Positions 20,674-60,702 are shown, numbered from the stretch's first letter. The stretch is 62,441 nucleotides of DNA from an uncultured Desulfobacterales bacterium (GCA_964567535.1 CAZMNC010000150.1:1-62441), one strand, 5' to 3'. Numbers and translations are program-made. The notes: a model not told the origin generated them from the letters alone.

Positions 20674-20685
20674 AATCTCACCCCT

Positions 20686-44338: not shown

Positions 44339-44351
44339 TTATAGCTTAGGC

Positions 44352-44711: not shown

Positions 44712-44717
44712 TATCTT

Positions 44718-44744: not shown

Positions 44745-44759
44745 GATATAAAATATCAT

Positions 44760-46145
44760 TTAAATAGAGGGGCCTATAATATCATCTTTACTAATATAAC
44801 ATCCAAGAGGAATTGCTTCAGTACTATTTCCATCGTGATTGTAGTCCTGTCTGTCTATACCTGCATTTATACAAGGAGAATGTTTACTTAAATGAAAAGA
44901 AGATAAGTCTTTAAAATTAGGATTTGAGACAAAGGAATCCAGATCTAAATTTTGAGCATATTGCCAATTTATTAATCTATTATATTCTTTTTTATCCTTT
45001 CTATATGGACTTAATATCCATTTTCCTGAAGGGAAAAAACAATTGTGATCAGAATATCTTGGTATATATATGTCGGGTCCTATTGTTTTTCTATGAGCAC
45101 CTACAAAAATGACATTTACCCAATAAAATATATTGTTCCATATTTGGAGATTAGGCGCTCCTGTAACTGATATTCCTGTTTTTAAATAAGAAAACACATT
45201 ATTCCATATTAATGTATTACGCCAATCAGAGATATATTTTCCAGTATGACTCATAGCTAATAAATAAATACCTGAGGCACAGTTTGCAATGATATTTTGG
45301 TATATCCTTGTATATAAGGTTTCTTCTTTACCATCCCAATAAGGAGATATTTCAGCATGATATTGAGTATCTCTGGAACATAAAAAGATTGCATGATTTT
45401 TACAATTGCGAATAATGTTTTTGTAAATCTTAAAATTATAATTATTTGCTTTAAAAAATATGCCTACTGTACAATTATAAATATAACAATTTTTTATTGT
45501 TACATTACTTGTAAAATAAGAAAGATAACCCGCTGAATTATGACTTAAACCTTGAGTACCATGAATTTTGCAGTTACTAATAGTAATATTTTTACAGTGT
45601 TTTAAATATATGCCTGGGTGATTGTCATTTGTATTAATAAAATGCCCTATTATTTCACATTTATTTATTATACAATTATTAGCTTCCAGCATTACCACTG
45701 CAGCATCTCCATGATCCATATGTAATGATTCAAAAATAAGACCGTTTATAATAATATTATTAGCATGTCTTATTAATAAAGGAAGTTTTTTTGCTTTTAT
45801 TACTACTCTATCTCCTGGATATGCCATAAATTTTATAGGTCTTGAAAATGTCCCTGAAACATTGATATATATTCCAATTGTACCAGGCTCGCAACCTATA
45901 GTACTAGTAAGATCAGGGGTGTGAAAATCTGATTCAATATACTCTCCTGCTTTTATCATTACTATATCGCCAGGTTTTACTATCCTTGCTGCATGTGAAA
46001 TAGTCTTCCAAGGCATATTTTCTGTCCCAGGATTTTTATCAGATGCTATATTATTGGATTTATCCACAAAAAAAATCCTTGCATGAACAGAATTACAAGC
46101 CAAGACAAAAAAAAGAATAATTATTATAGTTTTTATTTTTAACAT
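44760..46145 (-). CDS. Secreted right-handed parallel beta-helix repeat protein (polysaccharide lyase/hydrolase/epimerase-like)
   Basis: Signal peptide. PWKTISHAARIVKPGDIVMIKAGEYIE entry motif. Repeated ~22-aa units rich in N/I/G (NIIINGLIFE, NCIINKCEIIG, NITISNCKIHG, NVTIKNCYIYN). Confidence 0.7.
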   Translation of the reverse strand: MLKIKTIIIILFFVLACNSVHARIFFVDKSNNIASDKNPGTENMPWKTISHAARIVKPGDIVMIKAGEYIESDFHTPDLTSTIGCEPGTIGIYINVSGTFSRPIKFMAYPGDRVVIKAKKLPLLIRHANNIIINGLIFESLHMDHGDAAVVMLEANNCIINKCEIIGHFINTNDNHPGIYLKHCKNITISNCKIHGTQGLSHNSAGYLSYFTSNVTIKNCYIYNCTVGIFFKANNYNFKIYKNIIRNCKNHAIFLCSRDTQYHAEISPYWDGKEETLYTRIYQNIIANCASGIYLLAMSHTGKYISDWRNTLIWNNVFSYLKTGISVTGAPNLQIWNNIFYWVNVIFVGAHRKTIGPDIYIPRYSDHNCFFPSGKWILSPYRKDKKEYNRLINWQYAQNLDLDSFVSNPNFKDLSSFHLSKHSPCINAGIDRQDYNHDGNSTEAIPLGCYISKDDIIGPSI

Positions 46146-46156
46146 ATATATCGCTC

Positions 46157-47983
46157 CTATACCTTAATAAAGATTTGATACCATAGTTCTAAATTTATTA
46201 AAGCCCAAATTAATTCACATATATCATTATCAAGTTTTTCTTTAAGCAAGTTACAAACTATGTTCTTGTCATATAATCCAGATTCTGATTTATAAATTAG
46301 ATTCAAATATTGACCTAAAGATTTGTCATTTCTTAGCCATGAGCTTAATGGAACTCCAAAACCAGATTTTTTTCTATTTATTATGAGAGAAGGTAGATAT
46401 TTTTTTGCATATTTTTTTAATATATATTTTGTTCTGACTTTACATATCTTAAGAGTAGAAGATATCTTATAAGTAAATTCCACTATCCTGTGATCCAAAA
46501 AGGGGACACGAGACTCAATACCTGCTGCCATACTCATTTTGTCCTGTCGGATAAGAATAGAGACTAAATATGTTTTTAAGTCTAAAAAAAATAACTTTGT
46601 AAGAATATCTGTAATTTTTGAATTTACATGCATCATATTATATCTATATTTGAATTCAGTAGTTTTTAATCCAAATAATCTATTTAATAAATGAGGACTT
46701 ACAAAAGATGAATTAAACATGATGGTCGAGTCTTCATTCATACTTGCGAATTCTATAATTTTTTTTATCCTATGACTTTTTATAAAAATAGAAAGAGATT
46801 TCAAACAAAATAAAGCCCAAGGGAATTTTTTCAATAATGTATCTATAATAGGTATAAAATAACGCGGATATCCTGCAAAAAGTTCATCTGAACCTTCTCC
46901 TGTTAAAACCACTGTTACATAATTTTTTGCTAACTTACTGATACAATATATTAATACAGAATTAGGATGACAAAGAGGTTCATCATTATGATATATCATT
47001 TTTGGAAGCAATTCCGCAAATTCTCTTTGATCTATTTTTATCATGTGATGTTTAGTATTATATATATTGGATATAAGTTGAGCAAAACTTGATTCATCAA
47101 ACTCTTTTTCATAGAAACCAACAGAAAAAGTATGCACAGGCTCTTTTTTATATCTACACACTAAAGCTGTTATTAAACTTGAATCGATTCCACCACTATT
47201 AAATGTACCCAATGGAACGTCACTAATAAGCCTTTTATAAACTGAATCTCTAAGTAAGATATCCAATTCCTCTATAATAAATAATTCATTATCTATTATT
47301 TCTTGCTCAAAATTTATATCCCAATATTTCTTTATACTTACAGATCCATTTCTCCATATAAGCATGTGACCAGGAAGAAGATTAAACACTTTTTTAAAAA
47401 GAGTCTCTTTACCTGAAATAAACCTAAAAGTAATATATTCTTTTATTACTGAAGTATTCACTTCCTTAGGAAAGCCCTGATACTCCAAAATTGACTTAAT
47501 CTCAGAAGCAAATATTAATCCACCATCCCATATCGCATAATAAAGAGGTTTTATGCCCAATCTATCTCTAACTAAAATTAATATTTTTTCATTAGAATCC
47601 CATATGGCAAAAGAAAACATGCCGTTTAATTGATGAATACAATCGATCCCATATTCTTCATATGCATGTATAATTACCTCGGTATCACTATGGGTTGTAA
47701 AAATATGTCCTTTTGCCTTTAATTCAGTTTTAATTTCATTGAAATTATATATTTCACCATTATACGTAATCCATATGCTGCCATCCTCATTACTCATAGG
47801 TTGATGACCAGATTCTATATCTATAATACTCAATCTTCTATGAGCTAATCCCACATTTTTATTTACATATATACCACAATCATCAGGTCCTCTATGTATC
47901 ATCTTGTCTCTCATTTTTATTAGAGTATCATAAAACACTTTTTTATTAAGATCCTTATATATTATTCCACAAATTCCACACAT
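46157..47983 (-). CDS. asnB: Glutamine-hydrolysing asparagine synthase-family amidotransferase
   Basis: Ntn start MCGICGI (start set at ATG 47983 so that Cys is residue 2). PP-loop FNSGGIDSS. About 608 aa. Confidence 0.9.
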   Translation of the reverse strand: MCGICGIIYKDLNKKVFYDTLIKMRDKMIHRGPDDCGIYVNKNVGLAHRRLSIIDIESGHQPMSNEDGSIWITYNGEIYNFNEIKTELKAKGHIFTTHSDTEVIIHAYEEYGIDCIHQLNGMFSFAIWDSNEKILILVRDRLGIKPLYYAIWDGGLIFASEIKSILEYQGFPKEVNTSVIKEYITFRFISGKETLFKKVFNLLPGHMLIWRNGSVSIKKYWDINFEQEIIDNELFIIEELDILLRDSVYKRLISDVPLGTFNSGGIDSSLITALVCRYKKEPVHTFSVGFYEKEFDESSFAQLISNIYNTKHHMIKIDQREFAELLPKMIYHNDEPLCHPNSVLIYCISKLAKNYVTVVLTGEGSDELFAGYPRYFIPIIDTLLKKFPWALFCLKSLSIFIKSHRIKKIIEFASMNEDSTIMFNSSFVSPHLLNRLFGLKTTEFKYRYNMMHVNSKITDILTKLFFLDLKTYLVSILIRQDKMSMAAGIESRVPFLDHRIVEFTYKISSTLKICKVRTKYILKKYAKKYLPSLIINRKKSGFGVPLSSWLRNDKSLGQYLNLIYKSESGLYDKNIVCNLLKEKLDNDICELIWALINLELWYQIFIKV

Positions 47984-47990
47984 TTTTATA

Positions 47991-49388
47991 TTAACCGCCA
48001 AACTTTACAGGCACTTTTGATATAATCCATCTAAATTTACCGCTAACTGTTAAAGGAATCTCATTTACATATTCTATATGTATATTCATATCATTACCCA
48101 AACGTACCTTTAAACCTGAAATTAAACGCTGAATCTGTTCCTCAGAAAAGTCTTTATCTTTTACTATTTTCAATACCACATTCTTTGTATCTTCTTGTAT
48201 AATTTGAGATTTTTTTATTCCATGGATAGGTTTAAAAGGATGTGTGAGAATAGAAGGAGAAATAAATCTTCCATCATTGGTAACAATAATATCTTCAGCC
48301 TTTGTTGTAATATCCTCAATAAGAGGAAAGCTTCTTCCACATGAACACTTCTTTAATCTGTATCTTATAATATCATTAGTTTTATATCTAATAAAAGGCA
48401 TTCCAAAGTTATGAAGACTCGTTCCTACTATCCAACCCATCTCACCTTCATTAACTGGCTCGCCCTTATCATTAACTATTTCCATTATTCCATAGTCTAA
48501 ATTTATATGATGCCCTTTATGTTTTTCACATTCAGTAGCAAAAACCACTCTTTCAGCAAGTCCATAGAAATCAAAAATCTTACATTGGAACGCCTTTTCT
48601 ATAGTATCGCGTTGAAATTCATACAAAGTCTCAGATGAAGTAAACACGGCCTTGAGAGGCAAAGTCTCATTTCTGCTTTGCATATATTTTGCCAATATAT
48701 AAACAGTAGAAGGGTATCCTTCTATAGCCTTTGGTCTAAATCTACGAAGTTTATTAACATAAAATTTAAGATTTTCTTCTGACATATGAAATGCTGATAG
48801 CCATAATTGATTATGTAAATAATCCATTCTCCAAAAAGGGGGATTTTTTTGAGATATAGGCACTATCACTCTACCCAAAACTAAAGCATATTTGTCACCA
48901 TATATTACACCAGCCCATATCTTTTGCCGCCAATCAACCACATTATTGACTAAACACATGTTTAAATCCCAATAAAATTGTAAAGGAGACCCTGTGGTTC
49001 CGCTTGTATGTCCTTCCCTCAATTGAGAAAATTTAAATTTTTTAGAAATCAAACGTTTTATATTTGTTTTAACTATCTCTCGCGTCAGCAAAGGTAACTT
49101 TACAAGATCTTCTTGAGTATGAATATCATCAGGTTTTAATTTCCTTTTTTGCATAACTTCTTGAAAATATGGTACTGTCTCATAAGCAAATTTTATAAGC
49201 TGCCTTAATCTTATATTTTGATACTCTCTTAGTTCATCTATGGATAAATATTCATCTCTAATAAATTGCTCCAATAATTTTCTAAACTTAGTGCCATATC
49301 TTTCTATATGTATCTTAAAAGCATATATATTAAGAGCCAATGTCTGAAGAGGATAAGGTAAAATCTCATATAACTTTTGTGTATGCAT
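47991..49388 (-). CDS. Phenylacetate-CoA ligase-family (PaaK/CapK/F390-synthetase-like) adenylate-forming enzyme
   Basis: HTSGTTGSPLQFYW (AMP-binding P-loop-like motif). YGLAERV, and C-terminal ..SGKFRWI.. Lys motif. 465 aa. Confidence 0.75.
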   Translation of the reverse strand: MHTQKLYEILPYPLQTLALNIYAFKIHIERYGTKFRKLLEQFIRDEYLSIDELREYQNIRLRQLIKFAYETVPYFQEVMQKRKLKPDDIHTQEDLVKLPLLTREIVKTNIKRLISKKFKFSQLREGHTSGTTGSPLQFYWDLNMCLVNNVVDWRQKIWAGVIYGDKYALVLGRVIVPISQKNPPFWRMDYLHNQLWLSAFHMSEENLKFYVNKLRRFRPKAIEGYPSTVYILAKYMQSRNETLPLKAVFTSSETLYEFQRDTIEKAFQCKIFDFYGLAERVVFATECEKHKGHHINLDYGIMEIVNDKGEPVNEGEMGWIVGTSLHNFGMPFIRYKTNDIIRYRLKKCSCGRSFPLIEDITTKAEDIIVTNDGRFISPSILTHPFKPIHGIKKSQIIQEDTKNVVLKIVKDKDFSEEQIQRLISGLKVRLGNDMNIHIEYVNEIPLTVSGKFRWIISKVPVKFGG

Positions 49389-49390
49389 TA

Positions 49391-50587
49391 TTAATTTCCA
49401 ACCTTATTATAAAGATATGCCAATTTTTGGCCTATTTTTGAAAAATCATATTTTTTAAGTACTAATTCTCTACAATTTTTAGATAAATAATTACACAATT
49501 TTATATCATTGAATAATCTATCTATTTGATATACAAACTCATGAGGAGTTCTTGCCAATAATAAATGTTTTTCTGGTTCCGCTTCAATACCCTCAATAGA
49601 AACGGGATGTGCTACAATAGGTTTTGCCATCGACATTGCATCCAGTATCTTTAACTTTGTACCTCCTCCATCTCTAATAGGACAAATATATACATGTGCC
49701 TTCTCCAAATATGGCCTAACATCATCAACAAATCCTGTAACTATAAAATTACTATCTTTTTTGGCTATTGATAAAATAGATCGTGGTGGATCATGTCCAA
49801 TAATAATAACTTTAACGTTTGGCCAATTCTTTTTTAGAATAGGCCAGATTTCTCTACAAAAAAAGATAACAGCATCTCTGTTTGGGTACCAATTCATACC
49901 ACCTGCAAATACTAAGGTCTGAGGATCAAATCCTTTTTGAGAAGGCTTGAAATAGTCAACATCTACTCCATTTGGGATAACCTCAATATTAATTTCAGGA
50001 CATATTTTCAATAAACGTCTTTTATCAAGTTCAGAAACCGTAATGTTATAATTAAACATAGAACATATCTTATTTTCATAGTATCTCAGTTTCAATGACT
50101 CTATAAAAAAATAGAGTTTTCGGTATAGATTTTTTTCTTTTAAAGAACGCCTAAACATCATCTGAGACTCTATATTATGATGGTTAAGAACCTTAGGAGT
50201 ACTTTTAATTTCACGTATATATTCTGCCATATCAATAGAATCAAAATGAATACAATCAAATTTATCTAAACCAGTTAAGTTAATAATTAAATTTTTCATT
50301 CTATCAAAATACAACCATTGGCATGTATATGGTTTTAAAGAAAAAAGGCTTTTAAAAGCTATTATTTTCTTATTAATAGATACATTGATAACAGTTACTT
50401 TGTAACAAAATTTATTTAACTCAAAGATCCCCTTTTTTACATCTATTGGATATTCTACATTATGATCAACGCTAAGCAAATGAATATCATGAAATTTTGA
50501 CACATGTTTTATTAGATTATAAGTTCTCTGTAAGACCCCTCCTTTTGGAGGATAAGGAAAGATATGAGAAAGCCATAATATTTTCAT
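49391..50587 (-). CDS. Family 4 glycosyltransferase
   Basis: MKILWLSHIFPYPPKGGVLQR N-terminus and the GT4 C-terminal block GGGTKLKILDAMSMAKPIV. Start set at ATG 50587, immediately after the upstream stop at 50590. Confidence 0.8.
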   Translation of the reverse strand: MKILWLSHIFPYPPKGGVLQRTYNLIKHVSKFHDIHLLSVDHNVEYPIDVKKGIFELNKFCYKVTVINVSINKKIIAFKSLFSLKPYTCQWLYFDRMKNLIINLTGLDKFDCIHFDSIDMAEYIREIKSTPKVLNHHNIESQMMFRRSLKEKNLYRKLYFFIESLKLRYYENKICSMFNYNITVSELDKRRLLKICPEINIEVIPNGVDVDYFKPSQKGFDPQTLVFAGGMNWYPNRDAVIFFCREIWPILKKNWPNVKVIIIGHDPPRSILSIAKKDSNFIVTGFVDDVRPYLEKAHVYICPIRDGGGTKLKILDAMSMAKPIVAHPVSIEGIEAEPEKHLLLARTPHEFVYQIDRLFNDIKLCNYLSKNCRELVLKKYDFSKIGQKLAYLYNKVGN

Positions 50588-50589
50588 TA

Positions 50590-51384
50590 TTAAACCTTTG
50601 TCAATATACAATCTACCCTATTTATAAAAAATTCTCTAAAAAAAGGCAATTTAGCAAAAATATGAAGTTTTTTTATAGGTATGTACTTAAGATATTCTAC
50701 TGAGAAACCAGATTTTTTTATTATATCTTCAAATTTAGATACGGTGATCTTATTAAGTCCTCCTTCTACTTCTTCATAATGCTGTGCCCTATCCTGTCTG
50801 AAATATGATCTAATTTTCATTACTGTCTTTTCTCTAAATATTATATGAACCCAAGGAATTTTTGTGAAAAAATGCATATGCGCGCCATATGGAGCATACC
50901 ATGGGGGACCAAATGTTATATATGTCTTACCCCTTTTTTTTAAAACTCTATGCCACAATTCAACTATCTTTTCAGGATCACTATAATGTTCAAAACTATT
51001 TTGACTAATTATAATATCAAAAAATTCTGAAAATGATTTCAAATCTATACATGTATCAAACCTAACCTTATCTTCAAGATTAAAACGAGTAAGCATTTTT
51101 TTGCCTTTTTCAAATACATCCCTTCTTATGTCAATACCAAACACGAATTTGGCACCACTTAATGCCATAGCTATAGCTTGTAGTCCAACTCCACACCCAT
51201 AATCAAGTACTACTTTGTCTTTAATTTCACTTAAAAATTTTTTTCCAAAAGCCAAAATCAAAGTATCCAAAGCCGTATCAAGACTTGTTTCAGGTGAAAA
51301 TGATCTTATCTTACTAAAAGAAAGCAGTATTCTTTCTCCTATTTTCATAGCTACCTCCTTGGATATTCTTGAATATTTTGACAA
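50590..51384 (-). CDS. Class I SAM-dependent methyltransferase
   Basis: Motif I VLDYGCGVGLQAIAMALSG and post-I acidic FGIDI. 264 aa. Confidence 0.8.
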   Translation of the reverse strand: MSKYSRISKEVAMKIGERILLSFSKIRSFSPETSLDTALDTLILAFGKKFLSEIKDKVVLDYGCGVGLQAIAMALSGAKFVFGIDIRRDVFEKGKKMLTRFNLEDKVRFDTCIDLKSFSEFFDIIISQNSFEHYSDPEKIVELWHRVLKKRGKTYITFGPPWYAPYGAHMHFFTKIPWVHIIFREKTVMKIRSYFRQDRAQHYEEVEGGLNKITVSKFEDIIKKSGFSVEYLKYIPIKKLHIFAKLPFFREFFINRVDCILTKV

Positions 51385-51451
51385 ATTTATATTTCTATTT
51401 TATACAATAATTTTAAAATAAAGTGCATTTCTTATATTGTTAAAGGTTTAG

Positions 51452-52072
51452 ATGAGTATAAATATAATTTTTTTAGTGCGTCATGGCGTAACAGATTGGA
51501 ATATATATCCAAAAAGATTTCAGGGCAGAAGAGATATCCCTTTAAACACTACTGGTATTCAACAGGCTTATGCATTAGCAAATTATTTCAAAAATATCAA
51601 AATTGATTATATAATCAGCAGTCCTTTGAGGAGGGCTTATCAAACTGCAAAAATAATAAATAAATTTCACAAATTACCCATCAAAATATGCGACCAGCTT
51701 ATGGAGATGCACTTTGGACATTGGGAAGGAAAAACAATATACGAAATAAAACATAAATTTCCTCAATTATGGAATCTTTGGGAAGAAGAACCTGAAAAGC
51801 TTAGAATACCTCAAGCAGAAACCTTAGATGACCTTATAAAAAGGATATTATCTGTTATAAAAAAGTTAAGTAATATATCATCTGGGATAAAATTAATAAT
51901 TGGTCATGGTTCTTGGATCAGAGCTTTTATTGCAAATATAGTACTTAAAAAAGCATCTTTATTTAACAAAATCCCTCAAAATAATGCCGCTATTAATATA
52001 CTTTATCTTGAAAATAGCAAAAATTTGAGATTAATATTATATAATTTTACACAATATTTAAAAATTTATTAA
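51452..52072 (+). CDS. Histidine phosphatase-family (phosphoglycerate-mutase-like) protein
   Basis: Catalytic RHG (FLVRHGVTDWN), SSPLRRAYQTA, and second His in IIGHGSWIRAF. Confidence 0.85.
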   Translation: MSINIIFLVRHGVTDWNIYPKRFQGRRDIPLNTTGIQQAYALANYFKNIKIDYIISSPLRRAYQTAKIINKFHKLPIKICDQLMEMHFGHWEGKTIYEIKHKFPQLWNLWEEEPEKLRIPQAETLDDLIKRILSVIKKLSNISSGIKLIIGHGSWIRAFIANIVLKKASLFNKIPQNNAAINILYLENSKNLRLILYNFTQYLKIY

Positions 52073-52085
52073 TGAGGGAATTGAT

Positions 52086-52853
52086 ATGGGTAACTATTTT
52101 AAAGACTCTCTTTATATCCCAAAAAGGACTAAAAAGCCCAGGGAATATGGAATTACGGTTATAAGTGATCAAGGGCTTGGAATCAGAGCAATAAAAGATT
52201 TAGTCGAAACAGCTGGAGAACATATTGACTTTGTAAAATTTAGTATTGGCACCGCTTATGTAACTTTAAATGTACAAGAAAAAATAGAGTTATATAAAAA
52301 GAACAATATAGAAGTATTTTTTGGAGGAACTTTATTTGAGATATATGCAGTTCAAAATAGAGTTGACCAATATAAGATATTGCTAAAAAAATTGGGGCTT
52401 AATTATGTAGAAATATCAAATGGTTTGGCACAAATAAGTGATGAAGATAAATTAAAATATGTAAATGAATTTAAAGAAGACTTTAATGTAATTTCTGAGG
52501 TTGGATGTAAAGATGAAGAAATAATAACTCCTCCTTACAAATGGGTTCAAATGATCAAAGATACTCTGGACGCAGGGGCAGCTTATGTAATAGCTGAAGG
52601 AAGAGAAAGTGGAAATGCAGGACTATATAGACAATCAAAAGAAGTAAGAATGGGCCTTATTGAGGAAATTATATATCATATTTCGCCAAAAAAGATTATA
52701 TTTGAGGCTCCTTTATTAGAGCAACAAGTATTTTTTATTAATAAAATTGGGCCAAATGTTAATTTAGGTAATATAATAGCAAAAGATATTATACTTTTAG
52801 AGGCTCAGCGATGTGGCCTAAAATATGAGACATTTATGCTAACAAAACTTTAA
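52086..52853 (+). CDS. comA: (2R)-phospho-3-sulfolactate synthase (ComA family)
   Basis: Collinear blocks shared with archaeal ComA as recalled: GEHIDFVKFSIGTAYV, GGTLFEI, NYVEISNG, LDAGAAYVIAEGRESG, IIFEAPLLEQQVFFINKIGPNVNLGNI, LEAQRCGL. Confidence 0.85.
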   Translation: MGNYFKDSLYIPKRTKKPREYGITVISDQGLGIRAIKDLVETAGEHIDFVKFSIGTAYVTLNVQEKIELYKKNNIEVFFGGTLFEIYAVQNRVDQYKILLKKLGLNYVEISNGLAQISDEDKLKYVNEFKEDFNVISEVGCKDEEIITPPYKWVQMIKDTLDAGAAYVIAEGRESGNAGLYRQSKEVRMGLIEEIIYHISPKKIIFEAPLLEQQVFFINKIGPNVNLGNIIAKDIILLEAQRCGLKYETFMLTKL

Positions 52854-52859
52854 CAGAAA

Positions 52860-54086
52860 ATGTTTCCATATAAAAATTTTATAAGAAAGAATGGCTTTAT
52901 ACCAGTAGCTTTAGTTTTTGGTGCTGAATGGGTAAATGGCTTAGCTATTATAAGAGCCCTTGGAGAAAAAAGGGTTAATATTTATGCATTAAGTAAATAT
53001 GCAAATGCTATAGGTTTTTATTCACGATATATTAAGAATTATATAATCCATCCAGACCCTTATAAAAACCCTAAATTATTTTTGGAGGTAATGATAAATA
53101 CAGGTGAAAAATTGCTTAATAAAAATGAAAAAGGTGTTATATTTCCTGTAAGTGATTTAGAAGTTAAACTATTAACAGAAAATAAAGAAAAATTACAAAA
53201 ATATTTTATATTTACCTTTTCTGATATAAAAAGCACTGTTATCAGATGTATTGATAAAAAGTACCATTTTGAAAATGCTGTTAAAAACTCTGTTCCTGTT
53301 CCAAAAACATACTTTCCTAATAAATTAGAAGAATTATATTTTGATCTCCAAAACAATAAAATAGATTATCCTATTCTTTTTAAAGCTCGACATTCATTAG
53401 TATCAAACATTCGAGAAAAATACAGAGTCATTTTAATAAGGGATCAAAATCAACTAAATAAAATTGTTAAATTGGCTACAAAAGATAAAGTACCATTCTT
53501 GATTCAGGAAGTCATACCCGGAGGTGATGAAAATCTATATACATTGGGCACTTATATGAGCAAAAAAGGGAGTTTTAAAGCTATTTTTACAGGAAGAAAA
53601 CTTAGACAAAAACCCCCTCATTTTGGGATATGCAGAGTGGGAGAAAGCATATATTCCCCTAAAATTATAGGGTATGGGTATAAATTACTAAAGGCTATTA
53701 ATTTTTTTGGTATTTCACAGGTGGAATTTAAATATGATTATAGAGATGATGAATTTAAACTAATGGAAATTAATCCAAGGAGTTGGTCTTGGATTGGATT
53801 ACCAGTAAAAATGGGGATAAATATCCCTTATATAGCATTCTGTGATGTATTAGGTATTAATGAAAAATGTCCACCACCACATATATGCTCCAAAAGATAT
53901 CTATGGATATCTATTGAAGATGATATATTGACGTCTATTAAATTTAAGGATGGATTTCCTCTTAAGCACCTTTTGTCAAATATGAATAATCTTTGTGAAG
54001 CATATTTTTCCCTTAAAGATCCCATACCCTGGGTATATCATATTAATGAATTAATGAGCAATATGATAAAAAGATATGCAAATTAA
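52860..54086 (+). CDS. ATP-grasp-fold carboxylate-amine ligase-like protein
   Basis: 408 aa. Pre-ATP-grasp Rossmann-like N-terminus (PVALVFGAEWVNGLAIIRALG), central PILFKARHS / FLIQEVIPGG, and C-terminal GISQVEFKYD..FKLMEINPR (ATP-grasp Mg/ATP loop). Confidence 0.7.
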   Translation: MFPYKNFIRKNGFIPVALVFGAEWVNGLAIIRALGEKRVNIYALSKYANAIGFYSRYIKNYIIHPDPYKNPKLFLEVMINTGEKLLNKNEKGVIFPVSDLEVKLLTENKEKLQKYFIFTFSDIKSTVIRCIDKKYHFENAVKNSVPVPKTYFPNKLEELYFDLQNNKIDYPILFKARHSLVSNIREKYRVILIRDQNQLNKIVKLATKDKVPFLIQEVIPGGDENLYTLGTYMSKKGSFKAIFTGRKLRQKPPHFGICRVGESIYSPKIIGYGYKLLKAINFFGISQVEFKYDYRDDEFKLMEINPRSWSWIGLPVKMGINIPYIAFCDVLGINEKCPPPHICSKRYLWISIEDDILTSIKFKDGFPLKHLLSNMNNLCEAYFSLKDPIPWVYHINELMSNMIKRYAN

Positions 54087-55197
54087 CATATTATACCTAA
54101 TAGAAACCATAGGACCAGGTGGCGCGGAAAAGATGCTTATTGATTTAACTTCAAATATAAATAAAAAATTTTTTCATCCTATAGTCTGCTTAACAAAAAA
54201 AGGTTGGCTTTCCGAGAAGTTAAAATATCAAAACACAGAAACTATTATAATAGAAAGCAAAAAAAGATTTGATTTTATATGGTCTATAAAGATAGCACAA
54301 TTTATAAAAAGAAGAAAAATAGACTTATTGCATACTCATCTTTTAGATTCTAATTTCTATGGGGCAATAGCGTCTTTGCTGGCTAAGTGTCCACAAGTTT
54401 GCACAGAACACGGCGATGCCCATCATTCTATATATAAAAAAGATATATCTATATGGACTAAATATTTTTTTATAGCTTTGATTGCTCATAAAATTATTGC
54501 GGTATCAAAATTCACTGCTAATAAACTAAAAAAGATGATCTACTTCAAAGACAAAATATCTGTAATCTACAATGGAATAGATACTAGCATATTTGAACTT
54601 AATAATAAGGAAGATAGAATTCTTATAAGAAAATCCTTGGGAATTCCTGATAATGCAATAATTGTCATATGTGTTGCCAACCTATATCCTGCTAAAGGGC
54701 ATGAAACACTACTCAAAGCCATATCTTTAATATATGATAAATTACCAAATTTACATGTAATATTAGCTGGGAAGGGACAACTAAAAGACACTATTGAAAA
54801 ACAAGCAAATATTCTAAGGATTCAAAATAGAATTCATATACTTGGTCTTAGAAATGATGTGCCTGATCTTTTGAAAGCTTCTGATATATTTGTATTACCT
54901 TCTTTTTCAGAAGCTATGCCTTTATCATTACTGGAAGCCATAAGCTCTGGACTGCCCGTAATTGCAACTAACGTGGGAGGAATTCCTGAAATAATAGAAC
55001 ACAAAAAATCAGGTTTCATAATTCCTCCAGGAGATTACAAATTATTGGCAATGAAAATATTAGAATTAGCAATATGCGATAAAGAAAGAAAGGATATGGG
55101 ATTACAAGCAAAAAAAATAGCAAGAAAAAAGTTTGATATATCTATTATGACTTCACAGTACGAAGCTATCTATAAAGAATATGCCAAGAAAAAATAA
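54076..55197 (+). CDS. Family 4 glycosyltransferase
   Basis: ILYLIETIGPGGAEKM N-terminus and the EX7E block PSFSEAMPLSLLEAISSGLPVIATNVGGIPEII. Confidence 0.85.
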   Translation: MQINILYLIETIGPGGAEKMLIDLTSNINKKFFHPIVCLTKKGWLSEKLKYQNTETIIIESKKRFDFIWSIKIAQFIKRRKIDLLHTHLLDSNFYGAIASLLAKCPQVCTEHGDAHHSIYKKDISIWTKYFFIALIAHKIIAVSKFTANKLKKMIYFKDKISVIYNGIDTSIFELNNKEDRILIRKSLGIPDNAIIVICVANLYPAKGHETLLKAISLIYDKLPNLHVILAGKGQLKDTIEKQANILRIQNRIHILGLRNDVPDLLKASDIFVLPSFSEAMPLSLLEAISSGLPVIATNVGGIPEIIEHKKSGFIIPPGDYKLLAMKILELAICDKERKDMGLQAKKIARKKFDISIMTSQYEAIYKEYAKKK

Positions 55198-56455
55198 CAG
55201 GATAGATACCCCTTTTATTATATTAATGTTATATCTTTTCTTTGACTATGGCAGACCTCAAGCTTTCTTTCCTATAATTGGAAAATTACATCCCGGATAT
55301 ATATTACACTTATCACTTTTATGGTTACTGTTTAAGGAAAATAAATTATTTAACATTGAGGATACCCAAGTTAAAGCATTTATATTAATTTTGGCAATAA
55401 TGATAATCCATATACCTTTTTCAGAAAACAATTATTGGGCATTTGAAGGATGGAGAAATACTTTTCTATATTTTATAGTGTTCATGAGTATCATTAGTTT
55501 CATAACTACATATGAGCAATTAGAAAAATTTATTAAAAGATGGCTTATGATAATGATATTCTGTTCGATTGTTGGAATAAAATCTGGTGGCAAGGTCCCT
55601 AATTCTCCATTTATGGGTGATGAGAATGACTTTGCATTAGTTATGAACATGGCAATAGGAATGTCATATTTTATGTATTTTTATTCAGATACATTTAGTA
55701 AAAAAATATTTTATCTTTTTGCAATTGTATTATTTTTATGGGCAAACATAGCCTCTTTATCAAGAGGGGGCTTTGTTGGACTTATTGGTACAGCATTTTA
55801 TATATGGTTTAGAAGCCCAAAAAAAATGATTACCACCATATTTGCTGTATTATTCGCCATTATTTTTGCAAGCCTTGCTCCATCTTCTTATTGGAAAGAA
55901 ATGAAAACAATTAGACAAGAGGGAATACATAAAGGTACAGGTGGAGCACGTTGGTATTTATGGAAATGTGCATGGAAAATGTTTCTTCATCATCCTATAA
56001 TAGGTGTAGGTCAAAATAATTTTCCATGGACAGTAGGAAAATATGAACCAAAAGAAGAACAAAAAAGATATGCAGGAAGATCACATGTGGGCAGAGTTTG
56101 TCATTCTCTATATTTCACCATATTATCTGAATTGGGAGCATTAGGAACATTTTTATACTTTCTTATTTTTTTTAAATCCAGAAAAGATTTGATTCCTATC
56201 TTAAAATATGAATATTATTATTCCTCATTAATAGAAAATTTAGAAATTCATTTGTTTTTTCAGAAACTTAGGTATATAGTATATGGTGTTGAATGTAGTT
56301 TAGCAGCATATTTTTGGACAGGGATATTTTTAACAGTATGTTATTATCCACATTTTTGGGTATTTAATGGTCTTATGATAGCAATAAGAAATGTTTTAAA
56401 TAACACTTTAATAGAATTCCAGAGCAAAAAAGTATTGTTATTTAATGAACCATAA
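55181..56455 (+). CDS. O-antigen ligase/polymerase-like (Wzy_C-type) membrane protein
   Basis: About 10 TM segments. SLSRGGFVGLIGTAFYIW and GVGQNNFPW blocks are typical of the O-antigen ligase family. Confidence 0.75.
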   Translation: MPRKNNRIDTPFIILMLYLFFDYGRPQAFFPIIGKLHPGYILHLSLLWLLFKENKLFNIEDTQVKAFILILAIMIIHIPFSENNYWAFEGWRNTFLYFIVFMSIISFITTYEQLEKFIKRWLMIMIFCSIVGIKSGGKVPNSPFMGDENDFALVMNMAIGMSYFMYFYSDTFSKKIFYLFAIVLFLWANIASLSRGGFVGLIGTAFYIWFRSPKKMITTIFAVLFAIIFASLAPSSYWKEMKTIRQEGIHKGTGGARWYLWKCAWKMFLHHPIIGVGQNNFPWTVGKYEPKEEQKRYAGRSHVGRVCHSLYFTILSELGALGTFLYFLIFFKSRKDLIPILKYEYYYSSLIENLEIHLFFQKLRYIVYGVECSLAAYFWTGIFLTVCYYPHFWVFNGLMIAIRNVLNNTLIEFQSKKVLLFNEP

Positions 56456-57440
56456 TCTTTCATTAATAGAGATATTATTGGATATTGCGGTAGAGCTACT
56501 GGGAGGAGATATTGGGTCAATTATGCTTATAGATCCTAAGGAAGAGGGAATTTTAAAAATAGCTGCAGCCAAAGGCCTTCCTAAGGATCTTATAAATAAA
56601 GCAAAAGTAAAAATAGGCACGTGCATTGCGGGTAAGGTTATAACCTGTGGATTGCCTGTTGTAATAAGAGCACAACAAGAAAAAAAAGAAATTGGAATAC
56701 TAAAAGATGATCTTAAACGAAAAGACATTAATTGGTCTTTTATATTACCTATATATCACGGAAATATACCAATAGGAGTTATCAATATTGCATGTCTAAA
56801 TTCAGAAATTGAATTTGAATATCCATTAGATATTATATCTAAAAATTTGACTAAGTTAATAAACAGGTATCTTTTCTATTTATCAAAGAATGTATATATG
56901 CCTGCTATAGGTATTATATCTTATATACACGAGATAACAGTTGACCCTTTAACAGGACTTTACACCTATGGTCAACTATGGGCCAGATTAGAAGAGGAAA
57001 TAAACAGATCAAAACGATTTGGATATAATATAGCTATTGTTATGGTAGATATTGATCATTTTAAAAATATAAATATACGATTTGGATACCAGGTAGGAGA
57101 TAAGCTTTTACAAAATTTTAGTGAGTGGATGAGAGAGGAATTAAGAAAATATTCTGTTATTGCAAGAACTGGTGGAGCAAAGTTTACTATAATGCTTCCA
57201 GAAACTGATATGCCAGGTGGCATAAAAGTTGCAAAAAGGCTTCTGTGGGGAATAAATGAGATAAGCAAAAAAATGAAATTAAATGAACAAATAACTCTTA
57301 GCATTGGAATTTCAGAATTTCCAAAAAATGCAGATTCAGCTACACAGTTATTAGAAAAAGCGGAAGAGTCGCTCATTTCTGCCAAAATAATGGGCGGGGA
57401 TTCTATAAAAACAGCAACAGAACAGCCAATTTTAGAATGA
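56445..57440 (+). CDS. GAF domain fused to a catalytically degenerate GGDEF domain
   Basis: GAF (GGDIGSIMLIDPKEEGILKIAAAKGLP). GGDEF fold (DPLTGLYTYGQL, MVDIDHFKNINIRFGYQVGD) in which the signature pentapeptide reads GGAKF (57171-57185), the ND metal ligand reads NI, and the I-site position reads RKYS. Confidence 0.8.
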   Translation: MNHNLSLIEILLDIAVELLGGDIGSIMLIDPKEEGILKIAAAKGLPKDLINKAKVKIGTCIAGKVITCGLPVVIRAQQEKKEIGILKDDLKRKDINWSFILPIYHGNIPIGVINIACLNSEIEFEYPLDIISKNLTKLINRYLFYLSKNVYMPAIGIISYIHEITVDPLTGLYTYGQLWARLEEEINRSKRFGYNIAIVMVDIDHFKNINIRFGYQVGDKLLQNFSEWMREELRKYSVIARTGGAKFTIMLPETDMPGGIKVAKRLLWGINEISKKMKLNEQITLSIGISEFPKNADSATQLLEKAEESLISAKIMGGDSIKTATEQPILE

Positions 57441-58810
57441 AAGCAGAAATATTTTCATTACGTGATATTTGGGGTTGTGTTTCTATAGTTTTAATTGATC
57501 TTTTAATATCAGTGCTAATATTTTATTCTTTATTAATTGAAAGGTCTCAAACTATGGGACCATATCCATTTTTATCTGTCTTGCTACTATCTATATGTAT
57601 ATTAACAGCACTTATTATCTCGGGTATATATTCATTCCTAAAGGATTTTACTCCATTATCATTGGCAAGGTGCATACTTTATTCTCTATTTCCAGCAGTA
57701 ACATATATAGCATTAGTGTTGATATTTCTTTCTGAAACAGAATTATTAAAACATATATTACTCCTTATGATCCCTTTATACATAGCAATTTATATATTCC
57801 ACTTTTTTGTTCTTTATATATTAGATATCAATAAAAAGAGGGTAATATTTGTCGGGGCGAATGAGAAAACTGAACAAATTATAGATGGCATAAAAAAAAT
57901 AAGATTTACTTGCTATAAACCTATTGGAGTTATTACATATCTTCCTGAAAAGGTTGGCAAGAAAATATCTGATATTCCAATAATTGGAGAAATAAAAGAT
58001 TTAGAAAAATTAGCTATATCATCAAAATGTGATGTTATTGTCTTTTGTCTTAAAGAATGGCGAGGCAAGATGTCATTTCATCAATTAATAAAACTGAAAT
58101 TACTAAATATCCGATTTGAAGACGGAACGTTATTTTATGAGAAAATAATTTATGCCTTACCCATTACTGAATTTTTAAGGCCAAGCATATTCCTATTTCA
58201 ATCAGGTTTTCAAATAAGTTTATTCCATAGCACAGTAAAAAGGGCCACTGGAATTATAATGGCATTAGTTATACTCTTATTATCGTTCCCTATAATGTTA
58301 ATTATATCGATTCTGATAAAATTAGATTCTCCGGGTCCAGTTTTTTATCTTCAAGATAGAGTAGGACTTAACGGAAAAGTATTTAGATTGATAAAATTTC
58401 GTTCAATGATAAAAGACGCAGAGAAATATACAGGACCAATATTTGCTCAAAAAAAAGATCCCAGAATAACAAGAATTGGTAAAATCTTAAGAAGATTTAG
58501 GCTTGATGAACTTCCTCAGTTTATAAATATCCTTAAAGGGGATATGAACCTTGTTGGACCAAGACCCGAAAGACCAGAATTTGTAAAAAAGATGCGGGAA
58601 GTAATTCCATATTATGACTTAAGACACACTATAAGACCGGGTATTACAGGATGGGCTCAAGTAAAGTATAAATATGGAGATTCTATAGAGGATGGAAGAA
58701 AAAAATTAGAATATGATCTGTTTTATATAAAAAACAGATCTTTATTTTTAGATATTATCATAGTATTTATAACAATAAAAGTTATGTTAACAGGATGGGG
58801 AAGCAGATAA
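57437..58810 (+). CDS. Polyprenyl-phosphate glycosyl-1-phosphate transferase (bacterial sugar transferase, WbaP/EpsB-like priming enzyme)
   Basis: Multi-TM N-terminus, central Rossmann-like region, and the C-terminal catalytic block PGPVFYLQDRVGLNGKVFRLIKFRSM..DELPQFINILKGDMNLVGPRPERP. Confidence 0.9.
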   Translation: MKAEIFSLRDIWGCVSIVLIDLLISVLIFYSLLIERSQTMGPYPFLSVLLLSICILTALIISGIYSFLKDFTPLSLARCILYSLFPAVTYIALVLIFLSETELLKHILLLMIPLYIAIYIFHFFVLYILDINKKRVIFVGANEKTEQIIDGIKKIRFTCYKPIGVITYLPEKVGKKISDIPIIGEIKDLEKLAISSKCDVIVFCLKEWRGKMSFHQLIKLKLLNIRFEDGTLFYEKIIYALPITEFLRPSIFLFQSGFQISLFHSTVKRATGIIMALVILLLSFPIMLIISILIKLDSPGPVFYLQDRVGLNGKVFRLIKFRSMIKDAEKYTGPIFAQKKDPRITRIGKILRRFRLDELPQFINILKGDMNLVGPRPERPEFVKKMREVIPYYDLRHTIRPGITGWAQVKYKYGDSIEDGRKKLEYDLFYIKNRSLFLDIIIVFITIKVMLTGWGSR

Positions 58811-59860
58811 TTACAAATCTATATACTTTCGGATAAATGGACCAAAAAAATTTGCAAAAAAAATTGGCATTTTCTTCCATAATTTAACAAACATCTTATA
58901 TCTTTCTTTAACATCTATTATATTTTTATCTTCATCAGAGGGATAATATGAGTATTTATACCAATAAAGGGGGATTTCTTCTGTACCCCATTGTTTTTTG
59001 AATCTATAAGTACCTGATCCATAAGATGACCGTCCAAAACTAAAATAGCTAAACCCTTTTTTACAAGCATACTCTAACATCTTCCAATAAAGAAACATAT
59101 TAGGACTAAATTTATTATATCTTTTTAAAGAAGAAGCCCAAGGATTTTCCAAAGTATCCTTTAAACCTAAGGTAAAAGCACACGAAATTGGTATTTTTTT
59201 ATAATATGCAACAAAGATCCTTGAATATGTGGAAAAATATTTAAAAATCATATACATAAGTTTATATGAATGCACAGGAGAACCTAAATCCTTCATATTT
59301 GTAGAAAACACCTTATAAAAGTCTTTTAACAGTTCCATACCACCAATCTTAACATATATACCCTCTTTTAAAGGTCTTTTTATTTGACTTCTAAGCTTAG
59401 ATTTAAATGATAACATAAGGCTTTCTGGAGAGGTGTTTATTAGACTTTTTACCATTCTAACTTTTCTTGTATATTTTGAAAAACAATTATCAGTGTCTAA
59501 AGGCAAGGGATATGCTTGTCTTATTTCTATACTTTTACTTTTAAATTTATAAGCAATTCTTATAGCTTTGTTCAATAAACAAGTTGTTACCTCTGGAGAG
59601 TCTGATAATATACCTGCATAATCAAAAAAAGGAATAGATACAAATTTTGAACCAATAATAGGGACCTTAATCAAAATAAGAGGCAATATTCCTACAACAT
59701 TATCTTGATTAACAGCTACAAGAAATAAAGGTTTATGTCCATATACTGCTTTAATAATATAACTCCATTCAAACATATGAAATATAGAACCATCCTTCTT
59801 AGAAAGCACATATTTATTCCATATATCTTTAATATCTTTCTTTATTGTATGAATTTTCAT
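58811..59860 (-). CDS. FemAB-like/GNAT-fold acyl(aminoacyl)transferase of the type found in PEP-CTERM EPS loci
   Basis: 349 aa. N-terminal W..YV....GSIFHMFEWSYIIKAVYGHKPLFLVA...VVGILPL block and C-terminal YRFKKQWG motif typical of FemAB-family EPS proteins. Confidence 0.65.
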   Translation of the reverse strand: MKIHTIKKDIKDIWNKYVLSKKDGSIFHMFEWSYIIKAVYGHKPLFLVAVNQDNVVGILPLILIKVPIIGSKFVSIPFFDYAGILSDSPEVTTCLLNKAIRIAYKFKSKSIEIRQAYPLPLDTDNCFSKYTRKVRMVKSLINTSPESLMLSFKSKLRSQIKRPLKEGIYVKIGGMELLKDFYKVFSTNMKDLGSPVHSYKLMYMIFKYFSTYSRIFVAYYKKIPISCAFTLGLKDTLENPWASSLKRYNKFSPNMFLYWKMLEYACKKGFSYFSFGRSSYGSGTYRFKKQWGTEEIPLYWYKYSYYPSDEDKNIIDVKERYKMFVKLWKKMPIFFANFFGPFIRKYIDL

Positions 59861-60698: not shown

Positions 60699-60702
60699 AA
60701 AT

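Follow-up and report, generated by a model that had tools for sequence, protein, structure and literature searches.

An exopolysaccharide (EPS) operon of an uncultured Desulfobacterota bacterium begins with three adjacent genes, encoding a histidine phosphatase, a homolog of phosphosulfolactate (PSL) synthase (ComA) and an ATP-grasp ligase. Sequence and gene-context comparisons make it rather probable that this trio is a self-contained cassette for the synthesis of a C3 sulfonated acid and its attachment to a surface glycan. A broader proposition, which we put forward tentatively and hold to be a little short of probable, is that bacteria of at least five phyla place C-bonded sulfonate acyl groups (N-sulfolactyl or, in a variant, sulfoacryloyl or 3-sulfopropionyl) on surface polysaccharides by means of a portable cassette for ComA, phosphate-removal and ATP-grasp activities. 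A sulfolactyl polysaccharide had been suggested by an earlier sequence-only reading of this DNA. Comparative genomics supports that interpretation, in which the product, the acceptor and the sequence of reactions are our inference. The anionic groups so far known to decorate bacterial polysaccharides comprise carboxylates, phosphates, O- and N-sulfate esters and, occasionally, taurine amides. We know of no C-sulfonate acyl group on these polymers that is made de novo from phosphoenolpyruvate (PEP) and sulfite, and our literature search found no precedent for C-sulfonate acyl decoration of a bacterial polysaccharide.

The trio belongs to a unit of seven plus-strand genes within the window, i.e., the whole stretch of 62,441 nucleotides that was analyzed. 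The unit is part of an XrtA/PEP-CTERM-type EPS locus with the following features.

46157-51384, minus strand: divergent EPS genes (locus context) for an AsnB-like amidotransferase, a PaaK/F390-like adenylating ligase, a stp1 GT4 and a SAM methyltransferase; matches are TIGR03108 (542 bits), a DVU_1553-family and PaaK-like ligase, TIGR03087 (252 bits) and a methyltransferase
51385-51451, no strand: AT-rich intergenic region of 67 nt from which the minus-strand methyltransferase gene and the plus-strand operon diverge; presumed to include the promoter
51452-52072, plus strand: histidine phosphatase (His_Phos_1, PGM-type), 206 aa; proposed PSL phosphatase replacing ComB
52086-52853, plus strand: ComA-family (2R)-phospho-3-sulfolactate synthase (PEP + sulfite), 255 aa; PF02679, full length
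52860-54086, plus strand: ATP-grasp ligase, COG3919 group ("D-aspartate ligase"-labeled), 408 aa; proposed sulfolactate:glycan-amine ligase
54076-55197, plus strand: GT4 glycosyltransferase (PF00534, Glycos_transf_1, E 2e-43), nearest to stp2 of XrtA systems, BshA second
55181-56455, plus strand: Wzy/O-antigen-ligase-like polymerase (Wzy_C PF04932, E 4.8e-22; TIGR03097, 91.7 bits, below cut-off)
56445-57440, plus strand: GAF + degenerate GGDEF regulatory protein (PF00990, E 2.8e-32; GAF match weak)
57437-58810, plus strand: priming polyprenyl-phosphate glycosyl-1-phosphate transferase (Bac_transf PF02397, E 1.9e-67)
58811-59860, minus strand: FemAB-family XrtA/PEP-CTERM-associated protein, aminoacyl-transferase-like (TIGR03019 pepcterm_femAB, 276.3 bits, above the 260.35 cut-off)
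59829-60698, minus strand: polysaccharide deacetylase of XrtA-system type (TIGR03006, 243.2 bits, below the 276.2 cut-off)

The seven ORFs coincide exactly with the positions given by the sequence-only reading, and the tight operon that it described at 51452-58810 stands: the successive intergenic distances, all on one strand, are 13, 6, -11, -17, -11, and -4 nt, the first of the overlaps being that of the GT4 gene start with the ATP-grasp gene end. The promoter role of the 67-nt region is suggested by its position only, and a promoter scan gave no information, with 54 sites where 54.2 were expected. The call of a GAF-GGDEF protein holds for the domain matches, but its motif is degenerate (GGAKF, residues 243-247), and thus the protein is probably not an active cyclase. 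A terminator-like hairpin is present at 58715-58740.

The locus shares with XrtA/PEP-CTERM EPS loci the FemAB-like, deacetylase, stp1/stp2 GT4, AsnB-like amidotransferase and EpsB-type priming transferase genes. Two markers of the XrtA system exceed their cut-offs, TIGR03019 and TIGR03025 (priming transferase, 370 bits against 295.55); the same transferase scores just under the cut-off of TIGR03013 (384.2 against 393.35). The XrtA-system models stp1, stp2, polyde, amidotransferase and EpsB_2 are top matches below cut-off, including TIGR03088 for the window GT4 (204.5 bits). None of the NCBIfam XrtA/PEP-CTERM-system models matched ComA, the phosphatase or the ATP-grasp protein. The annotated ORFs of the 62-kb window include no exosortase, and a genuine PEP-CTERM tail is absent from every ORF; both may be encoded beyond the window.

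The ComA homolog aligns to positions 1-241 of the 243 in PF02679 (E 4.9e-83, 278.7 bits against a cut-off of 25.2), and the motif blocks that had led to the ComA call are all found in the translation. Its score with the archaeal equivalog TIGR03849 (233.8 bits) is under the cut-off of 280; the protein represents a bacterial branch of the family. The best PDB sequence match is 1U83 from Bacillus subtilis (1.5e-58), presumably the yitD product, and 1QWG from Methanocaldococcus jannaschii also matches (8.6e-41). The window protein is 33% identical (E 8e-42) to XcbB, the ComA homolog in the XcbB-XcbC-XcbD-XcbE pathway of Xanthobacter autotrophicus Py2 (PMC9457059). In an alignment with the experimentally characterized XcbB and 16 other ComAs, from cassettes and from other bacteria, it keeps all 35 invariant columns. 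Among these is K142, the EVGxK lysine, aligned with M. jannaschii K137, which reportedly has a catalytic role. As judged by this homology, the window ComA very probably adds sulfite to PEP.

The histidine phosphatase call is borne out by the match to PF00300 (His_Phos_1, E 2e-53) and by intact catalytic residues: R10, H11, R61, E85, and H152 (RHG...R...E...H) are invariant across seven cassette phosphatases. The protein scores below the cut-offs of all NCBIfam equivalogs and reaches no named subfamily among them (CobC, PspA, GpmB, SixA, and others), the best being CobC (143 bits against 162.9) and PspA. Its best PDB matches are phosphoserine phosphatase 4IJ5, PhoE, CobC and glucosyl-3-phosphoglycerate phosphatase.

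For the third protein, the ATP-grasp call of the sequence-only reading stands at the level of fold but not of sequence profile. The score with PF15632 is 27.1 bits, under the cut-off of 29.1; no sequence match to the PDB was found, and no NCBIfam equivalog cut-off is reached. The AlphaFold (AF2) model (pLDDT 95.3, pTM 0.93) has 473 Foldseek matches in the PDB at E of at most 0.001, including biotin carboxylase 2vpq (E 3.1e-17, probability 1.0, TM about 0.6) and, also with probability 1.0 and at E no higher than 3e-17, carbamoyl-phosphate-synthase-like, PurK and L-amino-acid-ligase structures. On the predicted structure, the product of 52860-54086 has a three-domain ATP-grasp fold. Among 56 members of the family, conservation reaches 90% or more at K133, K175, E289, E303, N305, and R307; biotin carboxylase serves as the model for assigning putative ATP- and Mg-binding roles to the conserved Lys and Glu-x-Asn residues. 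The ComA-linked clade alone has R189 and S359 (Q-to-R and E-to-S changes), which might fit an anionic substrate. Purely from gene context, we infer sulfolactate and a glycan amine as the substrate pair.

That context recurs in at least four phyla. Among ATP-grasp relatives of at least 39% identity, all that lie on long-enough contigs have an adjacent ComA gene. In the NJ tree, the nearest proteins to that of the window form one clade, whose members with enough flanking sequence are all ComA-linked. More distant relatives from other phyla have ComA within 10 kb, and still others are paired with GT4 without ComA; hence, the acid specificity varies within the family. Besides the Desulfobacterota window, linkage of ComA and ATP-grasp genes is observed in Verrucomicrobiota, Myxococcota, Balneolaceae, and Actinomycetota. 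The trio itself occurs in three gene orders: phosphatase-ComA-ATP-grasp (the window, L001, L002, L093), ComA-phosphatase-ATP-grasp (L094, L096, L038), and ATP-grasp-ComA-phosphatase (L009, L011, L088, L095/L100). Thus, the neighborhood check proposed by the sequence-only reading came out in its favor, as did the other computational checks that were run: the trio recurs and is usually, though not always, syntenic with polysaccharide genes. Polysaccharide-assembly genes are found near the cassette in 13 of 18 long loci, L088 being a complete Wza/Wzc/Wzy locus, but the other five (L002, L009/L089, L095/L100, L012, L038) lack both glycosyltransferase and assembly genes over a distance of about 10 kb, and the target of the cassette is therefore perhaps not always EPS.

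Two loci, L008 and L012, carry a variant in which the phosphatase is replaced by a FAD_binding_2 flavoprotein (fumarate-reductase-like or NadB-like) and an XcbC-type lyase. L088 and L008 are alike in architecture apart from this replacement, and the ATP-grasp proteins of L008 and L012 share the NJ clade of the phosphatase-type cassettes. The lyase shows 39% identity (E 3e-95) with Xanthobacter Xaut_5053, a protein taken to be XcbC since its gene lies beside that of the synthase. Because XcbC eliminates phosphate from PSL in X. autotrophicus Py2 (PMC9457059), the conversion of PSL to sulfoacrylate is likely shared with Xanthobacter. The remaining Xcb steps differ: XcbD (cysteine addition) and XcbE are not in any cassette, in L008 and L012 the flavoprotein and ATP-grasp follow instead, and the window has a hydrolytic phosphatase in place of the lyase. 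The exchange of phosphatase and lyase ties this gene position to PSL processing. Both enzymes would remove the phosphate of PSL, and the lyase route would leave the carboxylate as the sole reactive group, which speaks for the carboxylate as the site of ligase action. The lyase and flavoprotein together would yield a sulfoacryloyl or 3-sulfopropionyl group.

Neighboring genes suggest the nature of the acceptor. In every Verrucomicrobiota locus, a polysaccharide deacetylase gene is located next to the cassette, and FemAB-like genes directly adjoin it in L088, L078, and L087; this repeated association fits an amine acceptor. In the window, the deacetylase, for which hydropathy indicates no signal peptide (the N-terminus is not hydrophobic), is a candidate source of a free sugar amine, and the FemAB-like protein may be a partner in making or using an amine of the repeat unit. 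Here, both are standard parts of XrtA loci on the opposite strand, and their presence is thus not cassette-specific.

The proposed pathway is as follows. By homology, ComA would join sulfite and PEP to give (2R)-2-phospho-3-sulfolactate, i.e., PSL. PSL is the sulfonate analog of 2-phosphoglycerate, a classic ligand of the PGM-type fold, and the histidine phosphatase would convert it to 3-sulfolactate in place of the unrelated ComB. The cytoplasmic ATP-grasp enzyme would then turn the sulfolactate carboxylate into an acyl phosphate and pass the acyl group on to an amine of the EPS repeat unit, itself linked to a lipid or a nucleotide. The likeliest acceptor would be a hexosamine de-N-acetylated by the cytoplasmic deacetylase of the locus, or an amino acid added by FemAB. 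The polymer bearing the sulfolactyl group would be built by GT4, Wzy polymerase and priming transferase, all encoded further along the same transcription unit, and the end product would be an EPS whose N-sulfolactyl (C-SO3-) substituent is permanently anionic. The window contains no source of sulfite; a gene of the TauE/SafE sulfite-exporter family is located at 3250-4167.

If this proposal is correct, PSL has a third biological fate, besides coenzyme M (CoM) and spore sulfolactate, and a non-orthologous PSL phosphatase exists in the PGM (histidine-phosphatase) fold. An ATP-grasp clade that is widespread but unannotated would gain a function, as would the bacterial ComA genes outside CoM metabolism, and XcbC-type chemistry would operate outside cofactor synthesis. 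The cassette would represent an unrecognized route by which sulfite is fixed, in sediments and soils, as part of extracellular polymers that resist hydrolysis and are permanently anionic. Such a sulfatase-resistant, strongly acidic type of EPS could matter for metal binding, desiccation and phage resistance, with possible relevance to organosulfur cycling in anoxic sediments and soils.

A comparable system, by mechanism only, is the glucuronamide system of the Campylobacter jejuni HS:2 capsule, where an ATP-grasp and a phosphatase of the capsule locus likewise attach a small group derived from a phosphorylated precursor to a sugar, by a linkage that derives from a carboxylate. The C-terminal amidoligase of Cj1438, described as a "TupA-like ATP-grasp" fold, acts there with the phosphatase Cj1435; the carboxylate of polymer GlcA is activated, and serinol-P or ethanolamine-P supplies the amine (PMC11800379). 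The small molecule of the cassette is instead an acid that has no amine, and so the cassette probably works with the opposite polarity. By analogy with Cj1435, the ligase could also act on PSL first and the phosphatase later. We consider it unlikely that the cassette retains the polarity of Cj1438C, with the ATP-grasp activating the C6 carboxylate of a polymer uronic acid and the ComA-derived compound as the nucleophile. The phosphatase would then unmask the 2-OH of sulfolactate for ester formation, as in VanA-type D-Ala-D-lactate ligases. UDP-glucose dehydrogenase genes beside the cassette in L001, L008, and L088, along with the capsule GlcA precedent (PMC11800379), agree with this scheme. 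However, PSL and sulfolactate have no amine, the sulfoacrylate or sulfopropionate expected in L008 and L012 has no nucleophile at all despite the same ATP-grasp clade, the EPS region of the window has no UDP-glucose dehydrogenase gene, and the deacetylase neighbors indicate a sugar amine as the acceptor.

Another scenario, also improbable, is a soluble small molecule built by bacillithiol- or mycothiol-like logic, an X-GlcN-sulfolactate cofactor or compatible solute, with no decoration of a polymer. GT4 would glycosylate the 2-OH of sulfolactate (a malate analog), the deacetylase would free the GlcN amine, and the ATP-grasp would add an amino acid. The recurrent set of phosphatase, deacetylase, ATP-dependent ligase and, often, GT4 is parallel to the MshA/A2/B/C and BshA/B/C steps, and BshA (TIGR03999) is the second-best profile for the window GT4 (161 bits, E 3.8e-47). 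This score is, however, far under the BshA cut-off of 273.7, the best match being the XrtA-system stp2. The stand-alone modules without assembly genes (L002, L089, L100), which would suit a soluble product, have no GT4 nearby, whereas the window, L088, and L008 cassettes are situated amid Wzy, Wzc and priming-transferase genes. In addition, the product of the lyase variant lacks a hydroxyl for glycosylation.

The ATP-grasp Aslfm attaches D-Asp to UDP-MurNAc-pentapeptide at the amine of Lys (Bellais et al. 2006, cited in PMC4155827). The logic proposed for the cassette is the same, an acidic small acid activated by an ATP-grasp and joined to an amine of a cytoplasmic envelope precursor; the cassette differs in that its proposed donor is a sulfonate acid made in situ, and in its location in an EPS operon rather than in peptidoglycan synthesis. 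That location could be incidental, the sulfonated acid being attached, as by Aslfm, to a peptidoglycan precursor or to an LPS or lipid-linked amine, which seems distinctly unlikely. Homologs of the ligase do bear the automated JGI label "D-aspartate ligase," PF01522 deacetylases act on peptidoglycan too, and in Verrucomicrobiota stand-alone modules of deacetylase and cassette occur among housekeeping genes. Against it, the ligase meets no equivalog cut-off, the deacetylases have no signal peptides, and in the window the genes for GT4, Wzy and priming transferase are translationally coupled to the cassette, which favors EPS.

The archaeal CoM pathway (ComA-ComB-ComC-ComDE) and B. subtilis 1U83 share the PF02679 synthase with the cassette, and the second archaeal step, removal of phosphate from PSL, is chemically the same. 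However, the cassette phosphatase is His_Phos_1, a fold other than that of ComB, and the cassette lacks ComC and ComDE and runs on instead to an ATP-grasp ligase within a polysaccharide operon. Sulfolactate accumulates in Bacillus spores. It is very improbable that the trio yields free sulfolactate or detoxifies sulfite, as in these spores, or serves CoM biosynthesis, with a functionally unrelated ATP-grasp: 1U83 is the best structural relative of the window ComA and the TauE/SafE-family gene is present, but ComB/YitC, ComC, ComDE and XcbC/D/E are all absent from the annotated ORFs of the 62-kb window, as the sequence-only reading had noted for the Com proteins, the host is a bacterium whose window has no sign of CoM-dependent metabolism, and the adjacency of ComA and ATP-grasp survives across phyla and gene-order shuffling, which would be unexpected for unrelated genes.

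Seven plus-strand genes occupy 51452-58810, and their open reading frames coincide exactly with those predicted in the earlier sequence-only reading, which proposed that the first three (the trio) supply a sulfolactyl group to an exopolysaccharide (EPS). Successive genes are spaced by 13, 6, -11, -17, -11 and -4 nt. Profile searches against Pfam and NCBIfam bore out the proposed families, the ATP-grasp assignment being the weakest by sequence:

51452-52072, plus strand: histidine phosphatase (HisPhos; Pfam His_Phos_1, E 2e-53)
52086-52853, plus strand: phosphosulfolactate (PSL) synthase ComA (PF02679, full-length, E 4.9e-83, 278.7 bits)
52860-54086, plus strand: ATP-grasp protein
after the trio, plus strand: GT4 glycosyltransferase
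next, plus strand: Wzy_C protein
56445-57440, plus strand: GGDEF protein with a weak GAF domain
last, plus strand: priming transferase (Bac_transf; TIGR03025 score above its cut-off)

The GAF-GGDEF assignment holds for the domains, but the signature motif is degenerate. Because it reads GGAKF and lacks an RxxD I-site just upstream, the protein probably binds or senses c-di-GMP and does not act as a cyclase. About 18 kb upstream, an HD_5 (HD-GYP-like) protein (37655-38638) and a PilZ protein (38640-39248) are encoded together. A sigma-70 promoter scan of the window was uninformative (54 sites versus 54.2 expected), and a terminator scan found only weak internal terminator-like hairpins.

The unit is flanked on the minus strand by the accessory genes typical of XrtA/PEP-CTERM-type EPS loci:

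flanking, minus strand: AsnB-like amidotransferase (TIGR03108)
flanking, minus strand: PaaK/F390-like ligase
flanking, minus strand: stp1 GT4 glycosyltransferase
flanking, minus strand: methyltransferase
flanking, minus strand: pepcterm_femAB protein (score above its cut-off)
flanking, minus strand: XrtA-type polysaccharide deacetylase

Within 44000-62441, the pepcterm_femAB match is accompanied by several XrtA-system matches near their cut-offs. In the window we found no exosortase gene and no protein with a PEP-CTERM sorting signal, a motif scan yielding one spurious antisense ORF; such genes may sit beyond the contig end at 62441.

The three enzymes of the trio appear intact. ComA retains each of the 35 alignment columns found invariant among 18 ComA proteins, the characterized XcbB among them, and its K142 corresponds to K137 in the enzyme of M. 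jannaschii; the active-site roles are presumed from the alignment. The phosphatase keeps the catalytic-type residues R10, H11, R61, E85 and H152. The ATP-grasp protein scores 27.1 bits against PF15632, under the cut-off of 29.1, and a PDB sequence search with it returned only noise. Its AlphaFold model (alignment of 49 homologs, pLDDT 95.3), however, is matched by Foldseek to biotin carboxylases, a carbamoyl-phosphate-synthase-like protein, PurK and an L-amino-acid ligase (E ~1e-14 to 1e-17, probability 1.0), so that the predicted fold upholds the family. K133, K175, E289, E303, N305 and R307 are retained. At two positions the ComA-linked clade of ATP-grasp proteins stands apart, with R189 in place of Q and S359 in place of E; these substitutions lower the negative charge and might fit a sulfonate substrate, which we regard as a lead only.

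Among the closest ComA homologs on long contigs, one locus (L001) carries GT4, HisPhos, ComA and ATP-grasp genes, and another (L002) HisPhos, ComA and ATP-grasp genes. With the ATP-grasp protein as a specific marker, we collected 80 loci each from reference genomes and metagenomes and screened their neighbors by tblastn. ComA is adjacent in every ATP-grasp relative of at least 39% identity whose contig is long enough to judge; HisPhos is likewise present, except in L008 and L012. Recurrence of the trio, anticipated from the sequence, is thus observed in three gene orders: HisPhos-ComA-ATP-grasp, ComA-HisPhos-ATP-grasp and ATP-grasp-ComA-HisPhos. The cassette carriers identified were MAGs without exception. 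In a neighbor-joining tree the relatives of at least 39% identity form one clade, every member of which with sufficient flank is ComA-linked. More distant relatives have ComA within 10 kb in Myxococcales (L038), Balneolaceae (L078, L087) and Thermoleophilia/Actinomycetota (L017, L021, L022, L039, L054). Because the adjacency survives shuffling of gene order and spans phyla, it is strong evidence that the three enzymes act together. In most Thermoleophilia/Miltoncostaeaceae loci (L018-L086; e.g., L032 9114-10972), a GT4 gene and a distant ATP-grasp family member make up a conserved pair; a priming transferase follows about 4.7 kb downstream, and ComA is absent within 10 kb. Tandem ATP-grasp duplicates occur in L020, L021, L028, L033 and L064.

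ComA in polysaccharide loci is not a general bacterial theme: in Larkinella (L171) and Gracilimonas (L172), ComA lies in unrelated contexts and is linked neither to the ATP-grasp gene nor to EPS genes. The ComA gene of a capsule locus (L005) also has no ATP-grasp gene and is flanked by genes for a TPR protein, discarded as a candidate partner, and a small membrane protein. A recurring pair was noted here: in Bacteroidota, ComA without an ATP-grasp partner immediately precedes a gene for a small membrane protein; the one in L171 (8001-9453) has a VTT/DedA-like domain, and the one in L005 (10001-11247) is of the PF06695 "small multidrug export" family.

The two exceptions, both Verrucomicrobiota MAGs, contain variant cassettes:

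L008 (Limisphaerales), 9411-12145: in place of HisPhos, a flavoprotein (FAD_binding_2) and a lyase (Lyase_1/ASL_C2) are encoded between ATP-grasp and ComA
L012, 12331-15056: same arrangement

The best relatives of the lyase (35-40% identical) are plasmid-borne, in Methylocystis iwaonis and in Xanthobacter Py2, Nocardioides JS614 and Mycolicibacterium chubuense NBB4, the last three of which we take to be CoM-using alkene oxidizers; genuine ArgH matches are only about 30% identical. The match on pXAUT01 is Xaut_5053, encoded directly after the phosphosulfolactate synthase gene (39% identity, E 3e-95), whereas the next gene, XcbD by gene order, gives E 0.002. The lyase is of the XcbC type. XcbC eliminates phosphate from phosphosulfolactate to form sulfoacrylic acid (PMC9457059). 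Since an enzyme type that dephosphorylates PSL fills the gene position of HisPhos, the suggestion that HisPhos is the PSL phosphatase gains support. The accompanying flavoprotein most resembles succinate dehydrogenase/fumarate reductase flavoproteins and L-aspartate oxidase (NadB-like), and a fumarate-reductase-type reduction of sulfoacrylate to 3-sulfopropionate would suit it. As an observation in its own right, an enzyme type known from phosphate elimination in the CoM pathway occurs here in a polysaccharide locus.

On the lyase route, a carboxylate would be the sole reactive group left; this speaks for the carboxylate as the target of the shared ATP-grasp ligase. One rival explanation reverses this polarity, the ATP-grasp enzyme acting on a uronic acid, for which Cj1438 is a precedent (PMC11800379). 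A second has a bacillithiol-like soluble glycoside as the product; the window GT4 as a BshA-like sulfolactate glycosyltransferase is not favored, because the XrtA-system stp2 family is its best match.

Sulfolactylation of an EPS precursor, our preferred reading, can be set against the gene contexts of the relatives. The proposed synteny with polysaccharide genes is found in 13 of 18 distinct long loci, whose fetched flanks encode glycosyltransferases, Wzy, Wzx, Wzc, priming transferases or UDP-glucose dehydrogenase (UGDH), but not in the other five (L002, L009/L089, L095/L100, L012 and L038), where assembly genes were not seen nearby. The cassette is therefore portable and its target may vary between loci, and a third rival places that target in the envelope but outside EPS. 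A complete locus, L088, encodes Wza, Wzc, GT2, a methyltransferase, GT4, Wzy, GT2, a FemAB-like protein, ATP-grasp, ComA, HisPhos, a deacetylase and UGDH; L008 shares this architecture apart from the swapped genes. Next to the cassette, all Verrucomicrobiota loci carry a PF01522 deacetylase gene, including L089 and L100, which are modules of four genes standing alone. By hydropathy the deacetylases lack a signal peptide or transmembrane segment, and a cytoplasmic, NodB-like role exposing a sugar amine would fit them. A FemAB-like gene is directly beside the cassette in L088, L078 and L087. In L001 (4858-8570), from a relative 63% identical, the trio is followed by FkbH_N, PP-binding carrier and MBOAT acyltransferase genes, resembling a glyceryl/acyl-carrier O-acylation module and possibly a second decoration route in that locus.

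Free sulfolactate or CoM synthesis is the least likely outcome: no ComB, ComC, ComDE or Xcb proteins are among the annotated ORFs of the window, and CoM biosynthesis is rejected there because the downstream genes are absent. In the sulfolactylation pathway, ComA would, by homology, convert phosphoenolpyruvate and sulfite to PSL; intracellular sulfite would be available if the host reduces sulfate. PSL is the sulfonate analog of 2-phosphoglycerate, a natural ligand of the HisPhos fold. Judging from gene context, HisPhos would hydrolyze PSL, and the ATP-grasp enzyme would form sulfolactyl phosphate, from which the acyl group would move to an amine on a cytoplasmic EPS precursor. Either the deacetylase would expose this amine or the FemAB-like enzyme would supply it, and assembly of the polymer would fall to the GT4, Wzy and priming transferase encoded in the same transcript. 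We lean slightly towards this pathway as a whole being correct, and as a hypothesis it is coherent, widely conserved and amenable to experiment.

The trio enzymes belong to known families; the pathway itself was not found described. Our literature searches turned up no relevant work connecting sulfolactate or phosphosulfolactate to polysaccharides, glycosyltransferases or ATP-grasp enzymes, and none on glycans that bear sulfolactyl or sulfopropionyl groups; a SAR11 paper mentioning phosphosulfolactate synthases concerns a transporter island, and glycans are not its subject. The trio shares the logic of ATP-grasp-dependent glycan decoration in C. jejuni and of D-Asp ligation to peptidoglycan precursors, and its first step is common to both CoM pathways, but it differs from all of these in donor, phosphatase fold and context.

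Elsewhere, the window carries genes for chemotaxis, flagella and type IV pili, an Rnf cluster, and genes for UppP, SelB and a TauE/SafE-family permease; scans for tRNAs and Rfam families gave no matches. Among named sequences, SelB is closest to those of MAGs assigned to Deltaproteobacteria or Desulfobacteraceae, RLB09214.1 belonging to the cluster at 69% identity, which places the source in an uncultured lineage of Desulfobacterota whose GC content is about 30%. The (sulfite/sulfonate exporter-like) permease gene follows a B12-binding radical SAM gene with overlapping stop and start codons (1439-4167, plus strand), and this pair, 47 kb from ComA, holds the only other sulfur-related gene of the window. 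In the Rnf-type cluster (17443-23456, minus strand), the last gene (17443-19470, 675 aa) encodes an RnfB-type Fe-S domain joined to a module of Fer4_20 and pyridine-nucleotide-disulfide-oxidoreductase (GltD-like). One edge of the EPS locus (44760-46145, minus strand) encodes a right-handed beta-helix protein with weak PelN/NosD-like matches and a hydrophobic N-terminus, which may be a glycan lyase or epimerase; the other (60703-61857, minus strand) encodes an NTP_transf_5 "uncharacterised nucleotidyltransferase".
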